Positions 1,941 through 45,090 are shown, counted from the first letter of the stretch. The stretch: DNA of 64,000 bases from an uncultured Eubacteriales bacterium (GCA_964515475.1 CAZEVD010000003.1:521-64520); one strand, 5' to 3'. The notes: generated by a model from the sequence alone, not told the origin. Made by a program: numbers and translations.

Positions 1941-4900
1941 TCAATCAGTTTCAATTTCTTTTTCAAGCTCAAATGAATAAATATATGTTTTTACAACTTT
2001 ATTTCCAGTAATATTTTCAAGAGCTTTTTTGTAATACTCTAATTGTTTCTTATATCTTTCCAAAAACTCTGATTCGTTTTTTAACTTATCGCTTTTATAA
2101 TCAATCAAAACTAGACCGTTATCAGTTTCGCAATATAGATCGATTATACCTTGTATCATTATTTCTTCATCTTCCACAGTATCATCAAAAATATTAAAAA
2201 CATCTTTAGCAGATAATTCTAAATTAAAAGGAACTTCTCTGTGAATTCTATTAGCTGATGAAATAATTTCATAAATTTTACTCTTTGAAAATTTAATTAA
2301 ATCCTTTTCTAATCTCCTCTTTGCTTTTTCATCTTCAACATCTTGTAATAAATTTTCAATATCAAAATTTGAATAATCTATTTTTTCCATTTTACTATGA
2401 AGTAAAGAACCATACGTTGCACCAGATATCTTAGTTTCCTCAATAAAGTTTGGTGTTTCTACTGCTTTTGTTTTTTGAATATTAACTAAATCATCAATAT
2501 TGTGCAATCTTTTCAATTCGCTAACTGAAAGTTTAGAAGGTATCTTAGTTGCTAAACTATAAGGATACTTGTAATTCATCCTATTATTTATAAATACATA
2601 TTCCTCTTCATCATAACTATTTTCTATAACTTCCTTTTCTTCTATTGACTCTTCATTATTAGATAATGAAAGTACATCATTATATGACCATTTATTTACC
2701 GTCCAATTATTATCAGTAGATAAAACAACATTACATATCCAATCAGCAAATGAAGATGCTGAAGATATTTTATAATTAGTAATTTTAGAAGACCACTCAT
2801 CAATTCTTTTCTCTATATTTTGTGCTAATGTAGTAATAATAAGTTTTTCTTTGGCACGAGTCATGGCAACATATAAAATTCTCATTTCTTCTGCAAGAAG
2901 TTCTTTTTTGCATTGTAATTTTAATGCTTGTTTAGGAATACTTTCATAAGTAACTCTATGTTTAGAATCTACAATATCAAATCCAAACCCTAAATCTTGA
3001 TGACATACAATTTGCTTTTGCAAATCCTTTTTATTAAATTTTCTTCCCATACCAGAAAGTATTACTATGGGAAACTCTAACCCCTTACTCTTATGAATAC
3101 TCATTATTCTAACAACATCATCGGCTTCAGATAATTCTGCCGGAGAATCTATATCTCCAGATGTTTCCTTTACATTCTTTATAAATGTTAAGAAATTATA
3201 TAACCCTTTAAAACTAGATTTTTCAAAATCAGTAGCTTTCTTTAATAACGCTTTAAGGTTATTTTGTCTACGTTCTCCATTAGGTAATAATGATACATAG
3301 TAATAATATCTAGTTTCTTCAAACAAGAAAGTTATAAGTTCATTTAAACTTAAGTATCTAGACTTATCTCTCCATGAATTCAACTTATCTAAAAACGCTT
3401 TTACTTTTTCTTCCCCGTTAGTTGCAGCTATCATCATCGCTTCATAAAAAGGTGCTTTTCTTTCGTATAAACGTATCTTTGTTAATTCGTTTACATCAAA
3501 ACTTCCTATACAAGATCTTAATACTGAAAGTAAAGGAATATCTTGATATGGATTATCTATTATCTTAAGTAGTGATAACATTATTTGTACTTCTGGATTA
3601 TCAAAATAGCCAGTTTTTACATCAGCATATACAGGTATATTTCTATTACCTAATTCTTGTACAAAAGTATCTGCTGCTCCTTTAGTCGCTCTTAATAATA
3701 TTGCTATATCTGAATATCTTGCTTTTCTCTTCTCTTTAGTATATTTATCATAAACTTCAAAGTTACCAACTAATTCTTCTATACGTTTTGCAACCACTCT
3801 TGCTTCTAATTGTAATTTTTCCTCAATATCATCTTCAACATCGCTTTCATCCTCTTCATCATTCTTTTTCTCGATGATATTTAATTCGGCAGGTTCACCT
3901 TGATATCCATAATATGAAGCACCAAATCTTAGATATTCCTCTTCATCATACTCAATCTCTGCGGTATCTTTATGCATTATATTCTTAAATATAAAATTAA
4001 CATCATCTACTATATTTTCATTACTTCTAAAATTCTTAAATAATAAAATTTTGTTTTCTAACTCTTGTTTCTCATCATCTATATAATGAGAATATGTATT
4101 ATATTTTCCTAAAAATAGTTCAGGTCTTGCTTGTCTAAACTTATATATACTTTGTTTAACATCTCCAACCATAAACATATTTCCAGTAGAAATTTTATTA
4201 AGAATAGTTTCTTGTATAAGATTACTATCTTGATACTCATCTATTAATATCTCTTGGTATTTGTCTTTATAATCTTTTAATACATCCTCATTATCTTCAA
4301 ACAACTTCAAACACAAATGTTCTATATCACTAAAGTCTAATGAATTTCTATCAGCCTTTTTTTGGTCATATCGATTTATAAAAGCTATTATTAGTTCCTT
4401 TATACCTATAGCGTGTCTATACGCAATTTTTAAATCAGATACTATTTCACTAGATGAAGATATAAATACATTATCTCTTAAGTCTTTTTCAATAATATCT
4501 TTCATCTTAGCTCTAACAGATTTAACTTCTTCTTTTAACTCTTCATCCATTTTGTCAGCTCTCTTCAAGCCTTCAAACTTAATAGTAGCAAATACGTTAT
4601 AATAATCATCCCATGTAAAATTATTTTTTCTTAAAGCTTCTAGTTGTAAAATATCATCTTGTACAACGTTTAAATAATTTTTAGTATCAGGATCATTAAT
4701 CATCATATCTTCAAGATTTTTTAACTCTTCTACTATTTCTTCTATTACTTTTCTTGCATACCTTATCAGCATATCTCCCCATAATGTTTTAGAAAAGTCT
4801 TCATCATGTACATTATACATTTCACACTTTTCTTCAAGCCATTCAATTGGTTTAGGACAGCTACTAATAAAACGCTGTATAGACAATATAAGATTTATTA

Positions 4901-5423
4901 AACCTTCATCTGATTTATTACTAGAATATGCTTCTAATACATCTGTAACAATTTCATCACTTGATTCATAATATTCTTCTAAAATTTCATCTATTGATTC
5001 AAGCTTTAATAATTCTGCTTCTGTAGAATCAACAATTTTAAAATTAGGATCTATATCTAATTTATAAAAATAATCTTTTACTGCTTTCTTACAAAAAGCA
5101 TCTATTGTCATTATGCTTGATCTATTTAAATACAAAATTTGTTTTTGTATATCTCTATTTTGACTAGCTTCTTGATATAGTCTTTCTCTTATACGTTCTT
5201 TCATTTCACTCGCTGCTGCATTAGTGAAAGTAACGATTAGCATTTTGTCTATATCAATACCATCATCTATAATTTTTCTAATAATTCTTTCAACGAGAAC
5301 AGCTGTTTTTCCACTTCCAGCTCCAGCTGCTACAAGGGTTTTAGAATTTCTAATTTTTATAGAATTTGATTGCTCTTTTGTCCATTTTACATCTGCCAAT
5401 TTCTTCACCTCCATTTGATGCAT
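1941..5423 (-). CDS. addA: ATP-dependent helicase/nuclease subunit A (AddA)
   Basis: UvrD-like Walker A (AGAGSGKT), 1160 aa, C-terminal nuclease domain. Lies immediately downstream of addB. The true start may be the downstream TTG after a GGAGGTG SD. Confidence 0.9.
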   Translation of the reverse strand: MHQMEVKKLADVKWTKEQSNSIKIRNSKTLVAAGAGSGKTAVLVERIIRKIIDDGIDIDKMLIVTFTNAAASEMKERIRERLYQEASQNRDIQKQILYLNRSSIMTIDAFCKKAVKDYFYKLDIDPNFKIVDSTEAELLKLESIDEILEEYYESSDEIVTDVLEAYSSNKSDEGLINLILSIQRFISSCPKPIEWLEEKCEMYNVHDEDFSKTLWGDMLIRYARKVIEEIVEELKNLEDMMINDPDTKNYLNVVQDDILQLEALRKNNFTWDDYYNVFATIKFEGLKRADKMDEELKEEVKSVRAKMKDIIEKDLRDNVFISSSSEIVSDLKIAYRHAIGIKELIIAFINRYDQKKADRNSLDFSDIEHLCLKLFEDNEDVLKDYKDKYQEILIDEYQDSNLIQETILNKISTGNMFMVGDVKQSIYKFRQARPELFLGKYNTYSHYIDDEKQELENKILLFKNFRSNENIVDDVNFIFKNIMHKDTAEIEYDEEEYLRFGASYYGYQGEPAELNIIEKKNDEEDESDVEDDIEEKLQLEARVVAKRIEELVGNFEVYDKYTKEKRKARYSDIAILLRATKGAADTFVQELGNRNIPVYADVKTGYFDNPEVQIMLSLLKIIDNPYQDIPLLSVLRSCIGSFDVNELTKIRLYERKAPFYEAMMIAATNGEEKVKAFLDKLNSWRDKSRYLSLNELITFLFEETRYYYYVSLLPNGERRQNNLKALLKKATDFEKSSFKGLYNFLTFIKNVKETSGDIDSPAELSEADDVVRIMSIHKSKGLEFPIVILSGMGRKFNKKDLQKQIVCHQDLGFGFDIVDSKHRVTYESIPKQALKLQCKKELLAEEMRILYVAMTRAKEKLIITTLAQNIEKRIDEWSSKITNYKISSASSFADWICNVVLSTDNNWTVNKWSYNDVLSLSNNEESIEEKEVIENSYDEEEYVFINNRMNYKYPYSLATKIPSKLSVSELKRLHNIDDLVNIQKTKAVETPNFIEETKISGATYGSLLHSKMEKIDYSNFDIENLLQDVEDEKAKRRLEKDLIKFSKSKIYEIISSANRIHREVPFNLELSAKDVFNIFDDTVEDEEIMIQGIIDLYCETDNGLVLIDYKSDKLKNESEFLERYKKQLEYYKKALENITGNKVVKTYIYSFELEKEIETD

Positions 5424-12797: not shown

Positions 12798-12931
12798 TTA
12801 TTTTAAGCCTCCTTTAACCACATAATAATATACCAAAATGGCTAAAAAGTAAACAAATACTGGTAAAAAAAGCCCTATTGAAGAGGGATATTTTTTGTAT
12901 TAAAATAATTGCTAAATAAGGAGTGATAAAA

Positions 12932-13582: not shown

Positions 13583-13597
13583 CAAAAGGGACAGTCT

Positions 13598-13638
13598 TAA
13601 AAAAAACGAATCAATCAAATTGATTCGTTTTTTTAGGC
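13598..13638. terminator. Bidirectional terminator between traX-like gene and fba
   Basis: Perfect hairpin AAACGAATCAATCAAATTGATTCGTTT flanked by A8 and T7. Confidence 0.7.
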
Positions 13639-13656
13639 ATGTCCCTATCTTTTTTC

Positions 13657-14586
13657 TTAAATTTTATCGTTGCAACCTAATACATCAACAATTTTATGTT
13701 TAACCATTTCTTTGATAGCATCTCTGCCAGCACCTAAATATTTTCTAGGATCAAATTCGCTTGGTTCATTAACAAAGATTTCTCTAATTGCACTTGTCAT
13801 AGCAAGTCTTAAGTCTGTATCGATGTTTATTTTACAAACACCACGTCTAGCTGCTTCTCTAAGCATATCTTCTGGAACACCTTGTGCGCCAGGAATATTT
13901 CCACCATATTGATTACATTTAGCAACAAATTCTGGAATAACTGTAGAGGCTCCATGTAATACTATTGGGAATCTGGGAACATATGATGTGATTTTTTCTA
14001 AGATATCATATCTAAGTTTTGGTTCGCCTTTAAATTTATATGCACCATGGCTTGTGCCAATAGCAATAGCCAAAGAATCGCAACCTGTTCTTTGAATAAA
14101 CTCAACTGCTTGGTCTGGATCTGTATAAGAACTGTCTTCTGCACTTACTTTAACATCATCTTCCACACCAGCAAGCTTACCAAGTTCAGCTTCTACTACA
14201 ACTCCTCTTTCGTGAGCATAATCTACTACTTTTCTTGTAAGTTCTATATTATCTTCAAAATTATGTTGAGAACCATCTATCATTACTGAAGTAAATCCGC
14301 CATCGATACATTTTTTACAAATATCAAAATCTGCACCATGATCTAAGTGAATTGCTATAGGCAAATCTGTATCCTCAACAGCAGCTTGAATCAAATGCAT
14401 CAAATAGTTATGTTTAGCATATTTTCTGGCCCCTGCTGAAACTTGAAGAATAAGTGGACTATTTACTTCTTTTGCAGCTTCAGTAATACCTTGAATAATC
14501 TCCATATTATTTACGTTAAAAGCACCAATAGCATAACCGCCCTTAGCAGCTTTTTCAAACATTTCTTTTGTCGTAACAATACCCAT
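13657..14586 (-). CDS. fba: Class II fructose-bisphosphate aldolase
   Basis: Class II FBA/TBP aldolase signature (GGYAIGAFN, zinc-ligand His residues). 309 aa. Confidence 0.9.
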   Translation of the reverse strand: MGIVTTKEMFEKAAKGGYAIGAFNVNNMEIIQGITEAAKEVNSPLILQVSAGARKYAKHNYLMHLIQAAVEDTDLPIAIHLDHGADFDICKKCIDGGFTSVMIDGSQHNFEDNIELTRKVVDYAHERGVVVEAELGKLAGVEDDVKVSAEDSSYTDPDQAVEFIQRTGCDSLAIAIGTSHGAYKFKGEPKLRYDILEKITSYVPRFPIVLHGASTVIPEFVAKCNQYGGNIPGAQGVPEDMLREAARRGVCKINIDTDLRLAMTSAIREIFVNEPSEFDPRKYLGAGRDAIKEMVKHKIVDVLGCNDKI

Positions 14587-14687
14587 AATTTACACATCCC
14601 TCTTTCTTTTGTGCGAAAACTCGCAAATCTTTTTTACATATAAAACTCTATCACAAAATACAAAAATATCAAATAAAAAATAAAAAA

Positions 14688-14717
14688 TGTCCAAAAAAGG
14701 ACGTCCCCATTTGGACA
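14688..14717. repeat. 30-nt palindromic element TGTCCA-N5-GGACGTCCC-N4-TGGACA (copy 1)
   Basis: Near-identical architecture to copy 2 at 44391-44420. The internal GGACGTCC is itself palindromic. Lies upstream of the minus-strand fba promoter region. Confidence 0.6.
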
Positions 14718-14860: not shown

Positions 14861-15022
14861 ATGGCAAAAATCAAATGTTCTGTATGTAGTTGTGCACACA
14901 ACGTCGCAGAAAAAAACGAATGCAATTTAAATGCAATTCAAGTATGTCCTTGCAAGAATTGTAAAACAGGTAGCCCTGAAGACGAAACTTGTTGCAGTTC
15001 ATATATAGAGACAAACAAATAA
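14861..15022 (+). CDS. DUF1540-family small cysteine-rich protein (53 aa)
   Basis: Not in the ORF track because it is shorter than 60 aa. MAKIKCSVCSCAHNVAEKNECNLNAIQVCPCKNCKTGSPEDETCCSSYIETNK shows the C-x2-C..C-x-C..CC spacing typical of DUF1540. Followed by the terminator at 15078. Confidence 0.6.
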   Translation: MAKIKCSVCSCAHNVAEKNECNLNAIQVCPCKNCKTGSPEDETCCSSYIETNK

Positions 15023-22517: not shown

Positions 22518-22556
22518 AAGGGACAATCCATTGTGGAATGTCCCTTAAATTTTTCT
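22518..22556 (+). terminator. clpE terminator
   Basis: Hairpin AAGGGACA..TGTCCCTT followed by TTTTT. Confidence 0.7.
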
Positions 22557-40515: not shown

Positions 40516-40570
40516 CTAGACTTAGGGGACATCCCTTGTAATCAAATTTTCGAACATGAAGGAGTGTCCC
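40516..40570. repeat. 11-bp inverted repeat CTTAGGGGACA-N33-TGTCCCCTAAG in the upstream region of the small gene
   Basis: Perfect 11-bp arms read directly from the sequence. Lies between the pheT terminator and the small gene's RBS. Confidence 0.5.
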
Positions 40571-40580
40571 CTAAGTACGA

Positions 40581-40619: not shown

Positions 40620-42983
40620 TTAAGAATCTCTTACTGTTGCTTCATATTCACTTGTTACTTTGTCGATAACTTTATTGAATATTGCAAGTACCTCTTCATC
40701 ACTTAAAGTTTTTTCTTTGTCATTGAATGTTAATGAGTAAGCAATAGATTTTTTGCCTTCACCAACATTAACACCTTCATAAACATCGAATACTTCAAGA
40801 TTAATTAATTTCTTACCAGCAGCTTTTCTAATGATAGCTTCAATGTCAGCTGATTTAGCATCTTTAGATACAACGAATGCAACGTCTTTAGATACATTAG
40901 GGAATTTAGAAATTTCTTTGTATTTCATATTTTCATGATTTGCATTTTCTAATTCTTCAAGATTTAATTCCATTACATATACATTATCCTTAGTTATATT
41001 TGGATGAATCTTTCCTATTATACCTAGTTTCTTACCATCTACTACGATAGTTGCGGCTTGACCAGGATGTAATTCAGCAGGAATATCTTCAACTACTAAA
41101 GAATATCTATTCTTGAATCCTAAGTAATCAAGTAATTCTTCCATAACACCTTTTAATACATAGAAATCTACAACTTTCTTTTCAAGACCTACAGTATATA
41201 CACCAGTCATTAAAGCAGCAAGTGATAAGTGTTCACCGTATTGACCATTAATTTTATGGAAGCTCTTTCCGATTTCAAATAATGAAATATCTTTTTCATT
41301 ACGAGCTTTGTTATATTCATAAACCATCTTTAATGATGGAATTAAACTATTACGTAATGCATTTCTTTCTTCTGTCATTGGGTCTAATATTTTTACAACT
41401 TCAAAATCCATTGTTGAATATTTAGGAACCTCAGCAACTGGAATTAATGCATAACTTAATGTTTCGTTCAATCCAAGTTCAACCATTTTGTTTCTAGCTG
41501 ATCTCTTGAATTTATCATAACTACCTGGAGTAACTTCAAGAATCATTTTCTTACCTTGTATATTATCCATTCCATAGTAACGACCGATGTCATGAATCAC
41601 GTCTTCTTTGATTTGTAAATCCCATCTTCTTGAAGGAATCTTAACAATAATATTTTCGTTATTAGCTTCAGCTTCAATTCTTAATCTCTTTAAGATGTGA
41701 TAAATTGTATCGTTTGATACATCTATTCCAAGAATATCTCTTACAGATTGTATTGAGAATTCTAATACTCTATCATCTGAATTTGTTGTGTTATATTCAC
41801 ACATACCGCCAACAACTTTAGCGTCAGCATATTTTTCTAACAATGCACAGCTTCTTTCGATAGCAAGTAATGTTCTCTTTGGATCTAATCCTTTTTCAAA
41901 TCTGTTACTAGCTTCACTTCTTAAAATTTTCTTAGAAGTTAATCTTACTTTTACAGGGTTGAATATAGCAGCTTCAATAACGATATTCTTTGTATCATTT
42001 TCAACTTCTGTAGATAAACCACCCATAACACCTGCAAGACCGATTGCTTTTTCTTTATCTGCAATTACGATATCGTTTGTAGATAAAGTTCTTTCTTGTT
42101 CATCAAGTGTTGTAAGCTTTTCATTTTCTTCAGCCATTCTTACAACTAAAGTATCGCCTAATCTATCAGCATCATAATAATGTAAAGGTTGACCAACTTC
42201 TAACATTACGTAGTTAGAAATATCTACAACGTTATTTATAGGTCTGATACCAGAAGCGATAAGTCTATTTTGCATCCACTTTGGACTTTCTTTAATTACT
42301 ACATTTTCAACTTTTTTAGCATAGAATAAAGAACAGTTTTCTGTTTCAATTTTCAAATTAAATTTCTTTGAAAAATCATCATCAGATTCTGTATAGTTTG
42401 TATCAACTTCATTCATTGGTAAATCATATAAAGCAGCAACTTCATAAGCCATACCTAATATAGAAAGTAAGTCACCTCTATTTGCAGTAAGTTCAAAATC
42501 AATTACTTCATCATCCATACCAAGGTATTTAACTGGATCTCCGCCAATTTCAGCATCTTCACCAAGTTCGGCAATACCTTCTATATCTTCAGGTTTTAGG
42601 AATTTGTGTTCTAAACCAAGTTCTTCAACTGAGCAAAGCATACCACAAGATTCTACACCTCTAATTTTTCCTTTTTTAATTGTTCCACCTGGTAATTTAG
42701 CATTAACTAATGCAACGATTACTTTGATACCAACTCTTACGTTTGGAGCACCACAAACAATATTTAAAACTTCTGTACCAACATCAACTTTACATACATG
42801 AAGGTGATCAGAATCAGGATGCATTTCACATTCCAAAACTTTACCAATAGTTAAACCTTCAACTTCAAGAAGTTTTTTGGCACTATCATATTCGTTTCCT
42901 ATGTTTGTCATGTCTTCGCCAAGAGTAACCATATCAACAGGAACTTTTATATAATCTCTTAAAAAATTAAGACTTAGTTTCAT
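40620..42983 (-). CDS. pheT: Phenylalanine--tRNA ligase beta subunit
   Basis: 787 aa. tRNA-binding, B3/B4, B5 and FDX-ACB domain order. Downstream of pheS. Confidence 0.95.
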   Translation of the reverse strand: MKLSLNFLRDYIKVPVDMVTLGEDMTNIGNEYDSAKKLLEVEGLTIGKVLECEMHPDSDHLHVCKVDVGTEVLNIVCGAPNVRVGIKVIVALVNAKLPGGTIKKGKIRGVESCGMLCSVEELGLEHKFLKPEDIEGIAELGEDAEIGGDPVKYLGMDDEVIDFELTANRGDLLSILGMAYEVAALYDLPMNEVDTNYTESDDDFSKKFNLKIETENCSLFYAKKVENVVIKESPKWMQNRLIASGIRPINNVVDISNYVMLEVGQPLHYYDADRLGDTLVVRMAEENEKLTTLDEQERTLSTNDIVIADKEKAIGLAGVMGGLSTEVENDTKNIVIEAAIFNPVKVRLTSKKILRSEASNRFEKGLDPKRTLLAIERSCALLEKYADAKVVGGMCEYNTTNSDDRVLEFSIQSVRDILGIDVSNDTIYHILKRLRIEAEANNENIIVKIPSRRWDLQIKEDVIHDIGRYYGMDNIQGKKMILEVTPGSYDKFKRSARNKMVELGLNETLSYALIPVAEVPKYSTMDFEVVKILDPMTEERNALRNSLIPSLKMVYEYNKARNEKDISLFEIGKSFHKINGQYGEHLSLAALMTGVYTVGLEKKVVDFYVLKGVMEELLDYLGFKNRYSLVVEDIPAELHPGQAATIVVDGKKLGIIGKIHPNITKDNVYVMELNLEELENANHENMKYKEISKFPNVSKDVAFVVSKDAKSADIEAIIRKAAGKKLINLEVFDVYEGVNVGEGKKSIAYSLTFNDKEKTLSDEEVLAIFNKVIDKVTSEYEATVRDS

Positions 42984-43002
42984 ATCAATCTATATCTCCC
43001 TT

Positions 43003-44049
43003 CTACACATTTTCAACGTCTGTTTCATCGAATTGTTTTAAGAATCTAATATCGTTTGTATACATGTAACGAATATCAGGAATTGCATATCTAAACATTG
43101 CAAGTCTATCAAGACCTGTACCGAATGCGAATCCAGTAAATTTATCTGGATCATATCCACCCATTCTTAAAACGTTAGGATGAACCATACCAGCACCAAG
43201 TAATTCTATCCAACCTGTTTTCTTACAAAGTGGACAACCTTTACCACCACATTTGAAGCAAGTTACATCAACTTCACAAGATGGTGATGTGAATGGGAAA
43301 TAACTTGGTCTGAAACGTACTTTAGTTTCTTCACCTAAAAGTTTCTTTGCAAATATTTCAAGTGTACCTTTCAAATCTGCAAGAGAAATATTTTTATCAA
43401 TTACTAAACCTTCAACTTGTCCGAATTGATGAGAGTGAGTTGCATCATCATCTCTTCTATAAGTTTTACCAGGACAAATAACCCTGATAGGAGATTTTTC
43501 TGTATTAGCTTGCATAACTCTTGATTGAGATGCAGATGTTTGAGTACGAAGTAAATACTCTTCATCAATATAGAAAGTATCTTGAGCATCACGAGCAGGA
43601 TGTCCAACTGTATAGTTTAAAAGTCTGAAACAATGTTCATCATCTTCAAGTTCTGGACCATCTACAACGTCATATCCCATTGATACGAATAAATCTTCAA
43701 CTTCTTCAATTATTCTATTAAAAGGATGTTTAGAACCTCTCATGTTTTTAACAGAAGGTAAAGAAATATCAATAGTTTCTTCTTTTAATTTTCTATTAAC
43801 AGCTTCTTCTTCTAAACGTGTTTTGATAGTTTCATAACCTGTATTAAAAGCTTCTCTTAATACATTAACTTGCATACCATACTCTTTCTTTTCTTCAGCA
43901 GGTACATCTTTAATGCCACTATTAAGCTCCGTTATGATACCTTTCTTTCCTTGGTATTGAACTTTTAAATCATTTAATTCTTGCATTGTTTTAACAGCAT
44001 CGAATTTTTCTAAAAGTTCTTTTTTCAATAGTTGAATCTTCTCTTCCAT
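43003..44049 (-). CDS. pheS: Phenylalanine--tRNA ligase alpha subunit
   Basis: Class II aaRS motifs 1-3 (for example FRPSYFPFTSPS, GFAFGTGLDRLAM). 348 aa. Confidence 0.95.
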   Translation of the reverse strand: MEEKIQLLKKELLEKFDAVKTMQELNDLKVQYQGKKGIITELNSGIKDVPAEEKKEYGMQVNVLREAFNTGYETIKTRLEEEAVNRKLKEETIDISLPSVKNMRGSKHPFNRIIEEVEDLFVSMGYDVVDGPELEDDEHCFRLLNYTVGHPARDAQDTFYIDEEYLLRTQTSASQSRVMQANTEKSPIRVICPGKTYRRDDDATHSHQFGQVEGLVIDKNISLADLKGTLEIFAKKLLGEETKVRFRPSYFPFTSPSCEVDVTCFKCGGKGCPLCKKTGWIELLGAGMVHPNVLRMGGYDPDKFTGFAFGTGLDRLAMFRYAIPDIRYMYTNDIRFLKQFDETDVENV

Positions 44050-44059
44050 TTGATTTCCT

Positions 44060-44345
44060 CCTTTTATATTTGAAAGATTATTATTTTTATATAAACAAAA
44101 ATCCCAAACACAATTAAATGTGTTTGGGACGAATTAACTCGCGGTACCACCCAACTTCCGATTTTATAAATCGACAGCTCGTAGGAAGATTAACGCTCTT
44201 CGCACGTACTAATTTCTTAGCAAGACTCCCACATCCGAAATTCATTTACATGTTTATCTTGCAAAGGCTCTCAGCCGGTGACCTTCACTTTCTTTAAAGA
44301 ACTCACGTAAACTACTAAATATGTGATCTTTGTCAAAAACTAAAA
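44060..44345 (-). promoter_or_regulatory. T-box riboswitch leader of pheST (Phe-specific expected)
   Basis: Conserved T-box sequence TTGGGTGGTACCGCGAG (plus-strand complement at 44138-44154). Followed by the terminator hairpin CCCAAACACATTTAATTGTGTTTGGG and a U-run (44097-44130). Promoter TTGACT-N17-TATTAT at 44348-44376. Confidence 0.85.
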
Positions 44346-44390
44346 CTATAATACTATCTTTTATAAGAAAAGTCAAATTATTTTTCAAGA

Positions 44391-44420
44391 TGTCCAAACG
44401 AGGACGTCCCTAGTTGGACA
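44391..44420. repeat. 30-nt palindromic element TGTCCA-N5-GGACGTCCC-N4-TGGACA (copy 2)
   Basis: Same architecture as copy 1 at 14688-14717. Lies 15 bp upstream of the pheS leader -35 and directly abuts the high-GC island's terminator. Confidence 0.6.
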
Positions 44421-44427
44421 AAAAAAA

Positions 44428-44450
44428 CGGGCCCCCGAAGGGGCCCTGCT
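44428..44450 (-). terminator. GC-rich terminator of the island gene
   Basis: GGGCCCCTTCGGGGGCCC followed by T8 on the minus strand. Confidence 0.7.
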
Positions 44451-44475: not shown

Positions 44476-45090
44476 TTATTTGGACTTTTCAACCAAGTCC
44501 ATTGCATCCTCGAGCGAGTAGCCCAGAGCCATAAGACGCTCGATCTTTTCCTTTGCCTTATCAACAGGCTTCGGTGCAGCAGGTTTCGGTGCATCCTCAT
44601 AGATATTCTTATCAGGATTGTACACCTTACCAGCCGGCGCCTTGGTCGGGTCGAGTTTCACACGCTCACCATAACCAACAATCTCGTTACCATCCTTATC
44701 CTTTACGGTCAGGAGAGTCCAAGCGTTCTTGGCAGGATCTGCGAGCAGTTCGTCTGCGGGCTTTTTGAGCATTGCATCATCGTCATCTTCAGGTTCTTCT
44801 TCAACCTCAGGCTTTTCCTTGCGGAATCTCCCGAAAATATCACAGAAGAGTTCGGAAATCGAAGTATCGCGGATTGCGGCTACGACTTTCAGACCGATGA
44901 TTACGAATGCTGCGATGCGGAGAATCGTCTTGGCTGCTGCCGGGATCGGAATCAGATCGGGGATGAACAGCCATACGAGGATTACTGCGATTGCGCCAAT
45001 GAAGGCAAACTTTTCCCAGCGGGGAATATTGTTCTTCTTAGCGGGTGCGGAAGGGGTTGCGGTGGGTTTACTTGTCTTCTTCTTAGCCAT
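44476..45090 (-). CDS. High-GC hypothetical two-TM membrane protein with an acidic linker and a C-terminal UBA/RuvA-domain-III-like helix-hairpin (204 aa)
   Basis: AGGAG RBS 7 nt before the ATG. Lys-rich N-terminus and two hydrophobic helices. Acidic stretch EVEEEPEDDDD. C-terminus KIERLMALGYSLEDAMDLVEKSK. Codon usage is strongly GC-biased, unlike all neighbours. Confidence 0.75.
   Translation of the reverse strand: MAKKKTSKPTATPSAPAKKNNIPRWEKFAFIGAIAVILVWLFIPDLIPIPAAAKTILRIAAFVIIGLKVVAAIRDTSISELFCDIFGRFRKEKPEVEEEPEDDDDAMLKKPADELLADPAKNAWTLLTVKDKDGNEIVGYGERVKLDPTKAPAGKVYNPDKNIYEDAPKPAAPKPVDKAKEKIERLMALGYSLEDAMDLVEKSK

Follow-up and report, generated by a model that had tools for sequence, protein, structure and literature searches.

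RESULTS

A 30-nt palindrome occurs twice, upstream of fba and pheST

The stretch of DNA analyzed here (the window, 64 kb in length) contains two copies of a 30-nt palindrome, for which exact coordinates are given. Copy 1, TGTCCAAAAAAGGACGTCCCCATTTGGACA at 14688-14717, is found where fba (13657-14586, minus strand) and a DUF1540 mini-gene (14861-15022, plus strand) diverge. The arms of this 30-nt hairpin repeat span 14688-14695 and 14710-14717, and its interior holds a GGACGTCC center at 14699-14706 and a CGTCCC core at 14702-14707, which reads on the plus strand. Copy 2, TGTCCAAACGAGGACGTCCCTAGTTGGACA at 44391-44420, is located between the terminator of a GC-rich gene encoding a 204-aa protein and the promoter of pheST. 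It has the same plus-strand orientation as copy 1, with arms at 44391-44397 and 44414-44420, a GGACGTCC center at 44402-44409, and a CGTCCC core at 44405-44410.

The two 30-nt palindromes with identical outer arms, reported in an initial annotation of this DNA, are real: the full composite pattern, allowing up to 3 mismatches, matches only copies 1 and 2, against 0.00 matches expected from 100 dinucleotide-preserving shuffles. Similarly, exact TGTCCA-N18-TGGACA and GGACGTCC each occur within the 64 kb only at these two copies. Both are singletons with no doublet partner. As the same annotation noted, an A-run follows each copy, and on the minus strand copy 1 reads like a terminator, a hairpin followed by a T-run, whereas copy 2 has no such T-run. 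Two nested GTCC-N6-GGAC half-units can be read inside the 30-mer, and a -35-like TGGACA hexamer is present at both of its outward-facing ends.

Other readings of the 30-mer were rejected. The short-peptide frame ATG-TCC-AAA (MSKKGRP, MSKRGRP*) runs into a stop at codon 8 of copy 2, and the similarity between the two peptides is accounted for by the palindrome. Avoidance of restriction sites was also rejected, with 20 GGGAC sites against 21.6 expected and 6 GACGTC sites against 2.3 expected, two of the six being the elements themselves.

The best fba promoter candidate, TTGATA-16-(TG)TAGAGT (14645-14672, minus strand), is outside the repeat, with copy 1 located 15 nt upstream of its -35. The -10/TG region of this promoter is kept in the related loci L015, L016, and L017, all of which are without an intact element. 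The pheST promoter, TTGACT-17-TATTAT (44348-44376, minus strand), is conserved in the related loci L010, L018, and L019. Copy 2 does lie upstream of the -35 of this promoter, as initially described, but at a spacing of 14 nt rather than 15 nt. The promoter is followed by the pheST leader (44122-44339, minus strand), which is a true T-box (RF00230, 86.4 bits, E = 2.3e-19) even though it scores below the Rfam gathering score of 93. An Rfam scan of the window at gathering threshold reports zero RNAs; with this leader under the threshold, such a scan under-annotates this genome. At E ≤ 1, the L017 locus, the loci of the related MAG described below, and the doublets give only generic miRNA-precursor hairpin noise.

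The GC-rich gene has an intrinsic terminator, whose hairpin (GGGCCCCTTCGGGGGCCC, 44429-44446, minus strand) is followed by a T-run (44421-44428) that continues directly into copy 2, an arrangement also found in L010 and L018. The copies themselves do not have the features of intrinsic terminators. Only copy 1 has a T-run, on the minus strand and with no co-oriented gene ending just upstream, and copy 2 has no T-run of its own and is preceded by a separate strong terminator.

The palindrome belongs to a dispersed family restricted to a narrow group of uncultured Clostridia

We scanned 185,579 genomes, one per species, with the strict pattern TGTCCA-N5-GGACGTCC-N5-TGGACA. Ten of the 12 matches fall in a single low-GC MAG, CAYMVI01, from an "uncultured Eubacteriales" bacterium. 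The remaining two are found one each in genomes of 66% GC and are approximately the number expected by chance for 20 specified bases. Fuzzy and HMM searches of 72 kb around the ten strict hits bring the total in this MAG to at least 20 copies, counting partners, and the window has 2 known copies in 64 kb. A scan of JGI metagenomes gave 2 matches, only one of them in a low-GC relative, where the copy follows the rplT terminator on a short contig. A scan of viral contigs with the repeat pattern gave 0 matches, BLAST searches of plasmids and phages found no match to a doublet or to the L017 composite described below, and we found no association of the repeat with tRNA or integrase genes. The repeat family is restricted to one narrow group of uncultured Clostridia.

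Every copy in the window, in the MAG loci, and in L013 is intergenic. The neighbors of the MAG copies are functionally unrelated to one another and include rplU, ftsH/serS, an EngB-like GTPase, an O-methyltransferase, radical-SAM enzymes, Ham1, a WYL regulator, and a surface protein.

Two MAG loci, L009 (the fba region, 83% identity) and L010 (the pheST region), are syntenic with the window, indicating that CAYMVI01 is a related species with orthologs of both window copies. The ortholog of copy 1 (L009 4031-4060) is identical at 30/30 positions and is accompanied by an extra 22-nt partial tandem duplication, and the ortholog of copy 2 (L010 5341-5370) has one difference. The whole fba intergenic region is conserved between the window and the MAG to the same degree as copy 1.

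Units fold as hairpins and are usually found as inverted doublets

The family consensus is TGTCCAAATGAGGACGTCCCCATTTGGACA. Each unit is a hairpin with 7- to 8-bp terminal arms, TGTCCAA(A)/(T)TTGGACA, enclosing a 14-nt asymmetric loop with a nearly invariant core, GGACGTCCC. The arms (positions 1-7 and 24-30) and the core (12-20) are separated by linkers (8-11 and 21-23) that vary freely, with 0.43 and 0.44 non-consensus calls per position in arms and core versus 6.14 in the linkers, a difference that is partly built in, since arms and core were required by the search pattern that identified the seed copies. The core is asymmetric (GAGGACGTCCCC versus its complement GGGGACGTCCTC), and each copy therefore has an orientation. 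A single copy folds weakly as DNA (-6 to -7 kcal/mol, z of about -2.7).

Copies in the MAG, a genome rich in this family, are mostly paired as inverted doublets, in which GGGACG is invariably the left-hand motif and CGTCCC the right-hand one. Such (-)(+) doublets are present at six MAG loci, with mutually unrelated spacers of 11 to 39 nt. The three doublets tested form long hairpins with almost perfect pairing (-33 to -41 kcal/mol, z of -9 to -12), and one doublet can form a single hairpin of 70 to 110 nt. Partners in a doublet differ at a mean of 2.56 positions versus 3.72 between loci, a result matched by 144 of 20,000 permutations. Further, locus-specific variants are common to both partners: CCAATTG in L004, CCAAG in L005, and AAAGAAGG...TTGGT in L011. 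Partial tandem duplications are found at L009 4009 and L001 3987.

The element turns over rapidly at orthologous sites

We compared the gaps that hold the element with their orthologs in relatives. Upstream of fba, the element is intact in the window and present as 1.7 copies in the MAG. In L014 (99% Fba identity), one base is deleted and the core is mutated; in L015 (95%) and L016 (92%) the element is absent, and in L017 (91%) its place is taken by a family member with flipped arms. The TG-extended -10 region of fba persists in every relative compared. Upstream of pheS, the element is intact in the window and the MAG, degenerate in L018 (98% PheS), and reduced in L019 (98% PheS) to a remnant matching at 21/30 positions, a value reached by 0 of 2,000 shuffles. 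Nothing is left of it in three relatives at 88% PheS identity. The initial annotation had named absence of the motif from orthologous gaps of close relatives as evidence against a specific regulatory role, and the motif is indeed missing or decayed in these gaps.

Turnover is also seen in the convergent serS/ftsH gap. In the MAG, a doublet is fitted exactly between the T-runs of the two terminators. L024, from ERZ28018841, the same assembly as the closest relative of the window, has a different, single TGTCC...GGACA hairpin in the same spot, and L025 and L026 contain unrelated insertions. Downstream start codons lie 14 to 157 nt from the promoter-proximal copy, and some copies adjoin ribosome-binding sites, 14 to 20 nt from the start codon.

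Sister families keep the loop motif and exchange the arms

The L017 locus, from assembly ERZ28018670, contains 16 CGTCCC/GGGACG motifs in 21 kb, versus about 1 expected from base composition by a rough estimate; L015 and L016 contain 0 to 1 core motifs in 16 to 21 kb. Ten of the 16 L017 motifs are located in hairpins whose arms differ by family and stay perfectly complementary: TTGGAAA/TTTCCAA (several copies), GGACAAA/TTTGTCC, TGGACAA/TTGTCCA, AAATGGACA/TGTCCATTT, and AATCGTCCA/TGGACGATT. In all of these sister hairpins, CGTCCC lies 0 to 3 nt from the 3' arm. In the related DNA analyzed, CGTCCC is found 49 times, in 31 cases between perfect arms of 6 bp or more, compared to 21% for 29 pooled control hexamers of the same composition, a figure that is inflated as some controls overlap the element. 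Because the sister arms differ yet stay complementary, what is recognized or maintained is most likely a hairpin with its loop motif, on single-stranded DNA or RNA; on the same sequence comparison, a fixed double-stranded operator would be an unlikely target. We rejected a reading of the 30-mer as a pair of GTCC-N6-GGAC mini-hairpins or half-operators side by side, as the L017 sister families keep the outer-arm pairing and lose the inner units.

L017 also contains two copies, at 89% identity, of a MITE/REPIN-like composite of approximately 195 bp that consists of a hairpin, 138 nt, and an inverted hairpin. Homology between the two copies stops at the outer hairpin ends, and the composite is palindromic overall. 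The L016 ortholog has kept the interior and has terminal hairpins from another family. Two L017 open reading frames (ORFs), 3532-4389 (285 aa) and 4559-5083 (174 aa), have no Pfam or NCBIfam match and are absent from the syntenic L016. Hairpin elements and 128-nt inverted repeats (800-927 and 5136-5263) lie on either side of these ORFs, which are the only gene insertion that we saw framed by the repeats, with no sign of transposase coding.

More TGTCC...GGACA hairpins with other interiors are present in the MAG and in L024, and one of them, followed by a T-run (L010 4197-4238), stands where the window has an ordinary terminator. The window itself has three possibly related GGGACA...TGTCCC hairpins next to terminators; a gapped search found two of them versus 0.01 expected, and the third has a longer spacer. 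One, with GGGACAG...CATGTCCC outer arms (13587-13645), wraps the bidirectional terminator between a traX-like gene and fba. Another, AAGGGACA-N13-TGTCCCTT (22518-22546), is located just past the stop codon of a 768-aa ORF, and CTTAGGGGACA...TGTCCCCTAAG (40524-40572) is directly behind the pheT terminator. An intergenic hairpin of the same type is found at L014 2101-2125. These hairpins may be members of the same hairpin superfamily or may reflect a terminator design typical of the lineage.

A palindromic repeat unrelated to the 30-mer, ATTGCAAT-TGGGGGCAGGTCTCG-ATTGCAAT, flanks the pheS T-box leader of L021, a more distant relative (88% PheS), with inverted copies at approximately 3440-3475 and 3940-3975. 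Its presence suggests that different branches of the clade are populated by different hairpin repeat families.

GC-rich orphan genes and a recombination tract adjoin copy 2

The GC-rich gene next to copy 2 (44476-45090, minus strand) has 50% GC versus 31% for the genome and is equipped with its own promoter and a strong terminator. Its 204-aa protein matches nothing in Pfam or NCBIfam; the N terminus is lysine rich, and the chain contains hydrophobic stretches as well as an acidic tract. Homologues are present in the MAG (L010 from 4524; 251 aa, 56% GC) and in L018 (1-189), and the MAG homologue can be aligned over only 53 aa, at 40% identity. By this comparison, the gene looks like an old, very fast-evolving resident rather than a recent insertion.

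An insertion hot spot tied to this GC-rich island was among the explanations first offered for the palindrome and is not supported. L019 has the decayed element with no GC-rich sequence in the 95 nt that its contig covers upstream, there is no second copy at the other edge of the island, and the island gene appears to be an old, fast-diverging resident common to the window, the MAG, and L018.

Elsewhere, the serS/ftsH gap of L026 (GCA_965353855.1) contains a GC-rich single-gene insertion at 4337-4972 (51% versus 34% GC), in the same convergent gap that holds a hairpin doublet in the MAG. Its 211-aa product has no family match and is unrelated to the window island protein. Intergenic gaps in this lineage may repeatedly host such GC-rich orphan genes. 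In the MAG, an insertion of approximately 980 bp (L009 5863-6846) with a 292-aa ORF, also with no family match, occupies the gap between lepA and a traX-like gene; the window (12860-12876) is without it.

Across the pheST block with its leader and promoter, the window (41761-44446) and L010 (5316-8000) are 98% identical, compared to 81 to 87% in the flanks, and PheS at 98% identity is common to L018 and L019. From this pattern of identities, the block looks like a recent recombination or transfer tract with its upstream edge at or within approximately 30 nt of copy 2.

Searches for a mobilizing enzyme and for insertion traces

Pfam and NCBIfam searches detected no transposase domain in ORFs adjoining clusters, including the two hairpin-bracketed ORFs of L017. 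Similarly, tblastn searches of 217 kb of the DNA analyzed here for a Y1-transposase homologue, using approximate IS200 TnpA and E. coli RAYT queries, returned only noise. No direct repeat that could represent a target-site duplication flanks any doublet, and the tetranucleotides GTAG and GTGG are absent from the flanks of 22 copies. We found no clean empty/filled site with exact boundaries; with no clean insertion event seen, we infer mobility from distribution and turnover. Clostridia do have group 1 RAYTs and IS200-like proteins of subclass 1.1 (PMC5581495, PMC6006769), which makes a cognate enzyme elsewhere in the genome plausible.

DISCUSSION

Nature of the repeat

The 30-mer is probably a REP/REPIN-type palindromic repeat, present here as solitary copies, whose family is dispersed through intergenic DNA and restricted to one lineage. 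A REP-like structural element was one of the candidates of the initial annotation, and it is supported by copies that are dispersed, intergenic, palindromic, and mostly arranged as inverted doublets. As the element comes and goes between close relatives, the family is selfish or structural DNA and not a switch for the neighboring housekeeping genes. Two observations could be signals of selection: the 14- to 15-nt spacing of both window copies upstream of a -35, and the 30/30 match of copy 1 across two genomes with an overall identity of approximately 83%. The whole fba intergenic region is, however, conserved to the same degree between these genomes, and the pheST block is in a 98%-identical recombination tract.

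The observations bear on several other explanations. An operator for a dimeric regulator was initially proposed; in a fuller form of this idea, a dimeric or tetrameric transcription factor would co-regulate housekeeping genes such as fba and pheST through a double-stranded palindrome at approximately -64, a class I activator/UP-region position. The palindrome with its two nested GTCC-N6-GGAC half-units, the 14- to 15-nt distance of both window copies from a -35 hexamer, and the retention of both copies at the orthologous MAG sites would be in keeping with such a factor. The repeat is not kept at orthologous promoters, however, and has neither the fixed position nor the coherent targets of a regulon: it is decayed, replaced, or absent in relatives at 92 to 99% Fba or 98% PheS identity, where the promoters persist, its distance to start codons varies, and its heterogeneous neighboring genes have no common theme. 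Doublets lie between convergent terminators, with nothing there to regulate, and other copies adjoin ribosome-binding sites 14 to 20 nt from a start codon. Further, the sister families swap the arm sequence and keep complementarity, which a single protein reading double-stranded DNA would not tolerate. An operator is very improbable. We also consider it unlikely that the repeat acts in cis as a transcribed RNA hairpin, whether a terminator or insulator, a 3'-end stabilizer, or a 5'-untranslated region structure, as proposed for many REPs. Single units fold weakly (-6 to -7 kcal/mol), and the doublets have a T-run before and an A-run after on both strands, the wrong order for termination. Copy 1 does read on the minus strand as a hairpin and then a T-run, but no co-oriented gene lies immediately upstream for it to terminate; many copies do lie directly behind intrinsic terminators, but copy 2 is past the U-tract of a strong one and upstream of the next promoter, and so is probably untranscribed. 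Also in favor of an RNA role are three MAG copies at most 20 nt from a start codon, which are thus probably transcribed, and the TGTCC...GGACA hairpin with T-run at L010 4197-4238, which replaces the ordinary terminator of the window.

REP/BIME elements bind IHF and gyrase. By analogy, the repeats could be sites for a host chromosome protein (a nucleoid-associated protein, gyrase or topoisomerase as at E. coli BIMEs, or a cruciform-binding factor) that are selected for genome architecture rather than mobility. The near-invariant arms and core next to variable linkers suggest constraint of this sort, the core is GC rich and palindromic in a 31%-GC genome, and the doublets can extrude as cruciforms. 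Selection for architecture is nonetheless distinctly unlikely, given a copy number that varies strongly between close relatives (0 to 1 core motifs in L015 and L016, 16 in L017, and 2 elements in the window), the coexistence of several arm families in one genome, and the decay of copies at orthologous sites.

If the family is of the REP/REPIN kind, units would spread or be renewed as non-autonomous elements. A trans-acting enzyme could recognize the hairpin and the CGTCCC loop, as RAYT or IS200-type HUH transposases do, with recognition of the unit as a single-stranded hairpin via stem shape and the CGTCCC loop motif. Doublets might arise by local inverted duplication or gene conversion, or might move as one unit. 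Copies would then settle or survive in harmless DNA behind terminators and ahead of the next promoter, and the window copies are probably old singletons left in such gaps. Any effects on fba and pheST would be incidental, possibly through the outward -35-like TGGACA hexamers or through a weak hairpin or insulator.

We raise, as a tentative idea, an undescribed superfamily of "loop-tagged" hairpins in uncultured low-GC Clostridia, with interchangeable stems (TGTCCAA, TGGACAA, TTGGAAA, GGACAAA, and others) and a constant CGTCCC loop read by an agent other than a canonical RAYT. If such a superfamily exists, the agent could be a new HUH-type or other single-stranded DNA transposase, or a host factor making use of the hairpins. 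Rapid intergenic turnover, including swapped hairpins, GC-rich single-gene insertions, and recombination-tract edges, might be driven by this agent as well.

Annotators should not treat these palindromes as regulatory sites of fba or pheST, and repeat DNA of this type could confuse assembly and motif discovery in this lineage. The fast turnover in presence and absence may provide markers for strain typing. A family in uncultured Clostridia with small genomes is also a data point on the spread and persistence of palindromic repeats without a transposase, as for CGTC REPs, and is notable for its conserved loop motif, swappable stems, and lack of a visible RAYT.

Comparison with known repeat systems

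REPs and REPINs are mobilized by RAYT (TnpA_REP) transposases (Bertels & Rainey 2011, PMC3116915; Nunvar 2010, PMC2817692), and REPs usually exceed 100 copies per genome (PMC2817692). The 30-mer resembles these elements in being an imperfect palindrome within the generic range of 20 to 40 nt that is able to form a stem-loop (30 nt, with a stem of 7 to 8 bp) and in being extragenic and dispersed. Like REPINs and BIMEs, the six doublets consist of inverted units with a short spacer that fold as one long hairpin and whose partners evolve together, doublets are the predominant form, several families per genome are possible, and copy number varies between related genomes. Unlike the REPs of RAYT systems, the 30-mer has no GTAG/GTGG 5' tag (a GTAG-type tag lies 0 to 2 nt 5' of the stem), its conserved CGTCCC is inside the 14-nt loop and not beside the stem, and no RAYT gene was seen in 217 kb of the DNA analyzed here. 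Its copy number is apparently in the tens rather than hundreds (at least 20 around the ten MAG hits and 2 in the 64-kb window), and its hosts are uncultured low-GC Clostridia, whereas REP families have been described mainly in Proteobacteria.

Small MITEs (Correia/NEMIS, RUP, and ERIC) and IS200/IS605-derived PATEs are comparable to the L017 composite, which has terminal inverted hairpins, a conserved interior, and sharp ends of homology; as in small MITEs, its termini carry outward-facing -35-like hexamers. In contrast to small MITEs, there is no target-site duplication, no parent insertion sequence was identified, no plasmid or phage record is similar, and the spacers of the MAG doublets are short (11 to 39 nt) and not homologous to each other. 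Inverted terminal hairpins, as in DDE-type MITEs, are present in the doublets and in the L017 composite, but the lack of a target-site duplication makes this type unlikely.

CGTC-tagged REPs, which include Neisseria dRS3 and Rickettsia RPE-4/6, have an unpaired CGTC (or TGTC/CCTC) tag at one terminus, a CCA tail, stems of 8 to 9 bp that start with A/T pairs, and loops of 4 to 5 nt, and this family has not been reported in Firmicutes (Di Nocera et al. 2013, PMC3733652). The 30-mer family likewise has a conserved CGTC, begins with TGTC, a listed variant of the tag, occurs predominantly as inverted dimers, lies 3' of coding regions where neighboring genes are unidirectional or convergent, and has no dedicated transposase adjacent. 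Its CGTCCC is internal to a 14-nt loop, however, its terminal TGTC pairs with GACA, and its stems are 7 to 8 bp. Membership in the CGTC-tagged class was rejected on this architecture, in comparison with the published description; by analogy, the 30-mer appears to work like the CGTC REP class without being a member. Our literature search found no prior description of the 30-mer sequence and no matching REPIN/RAYT system in Firmicutes. The 30-mer family is a previously undescribed member of the REP/REPIN-like class, with an unusual motif located in the loop.
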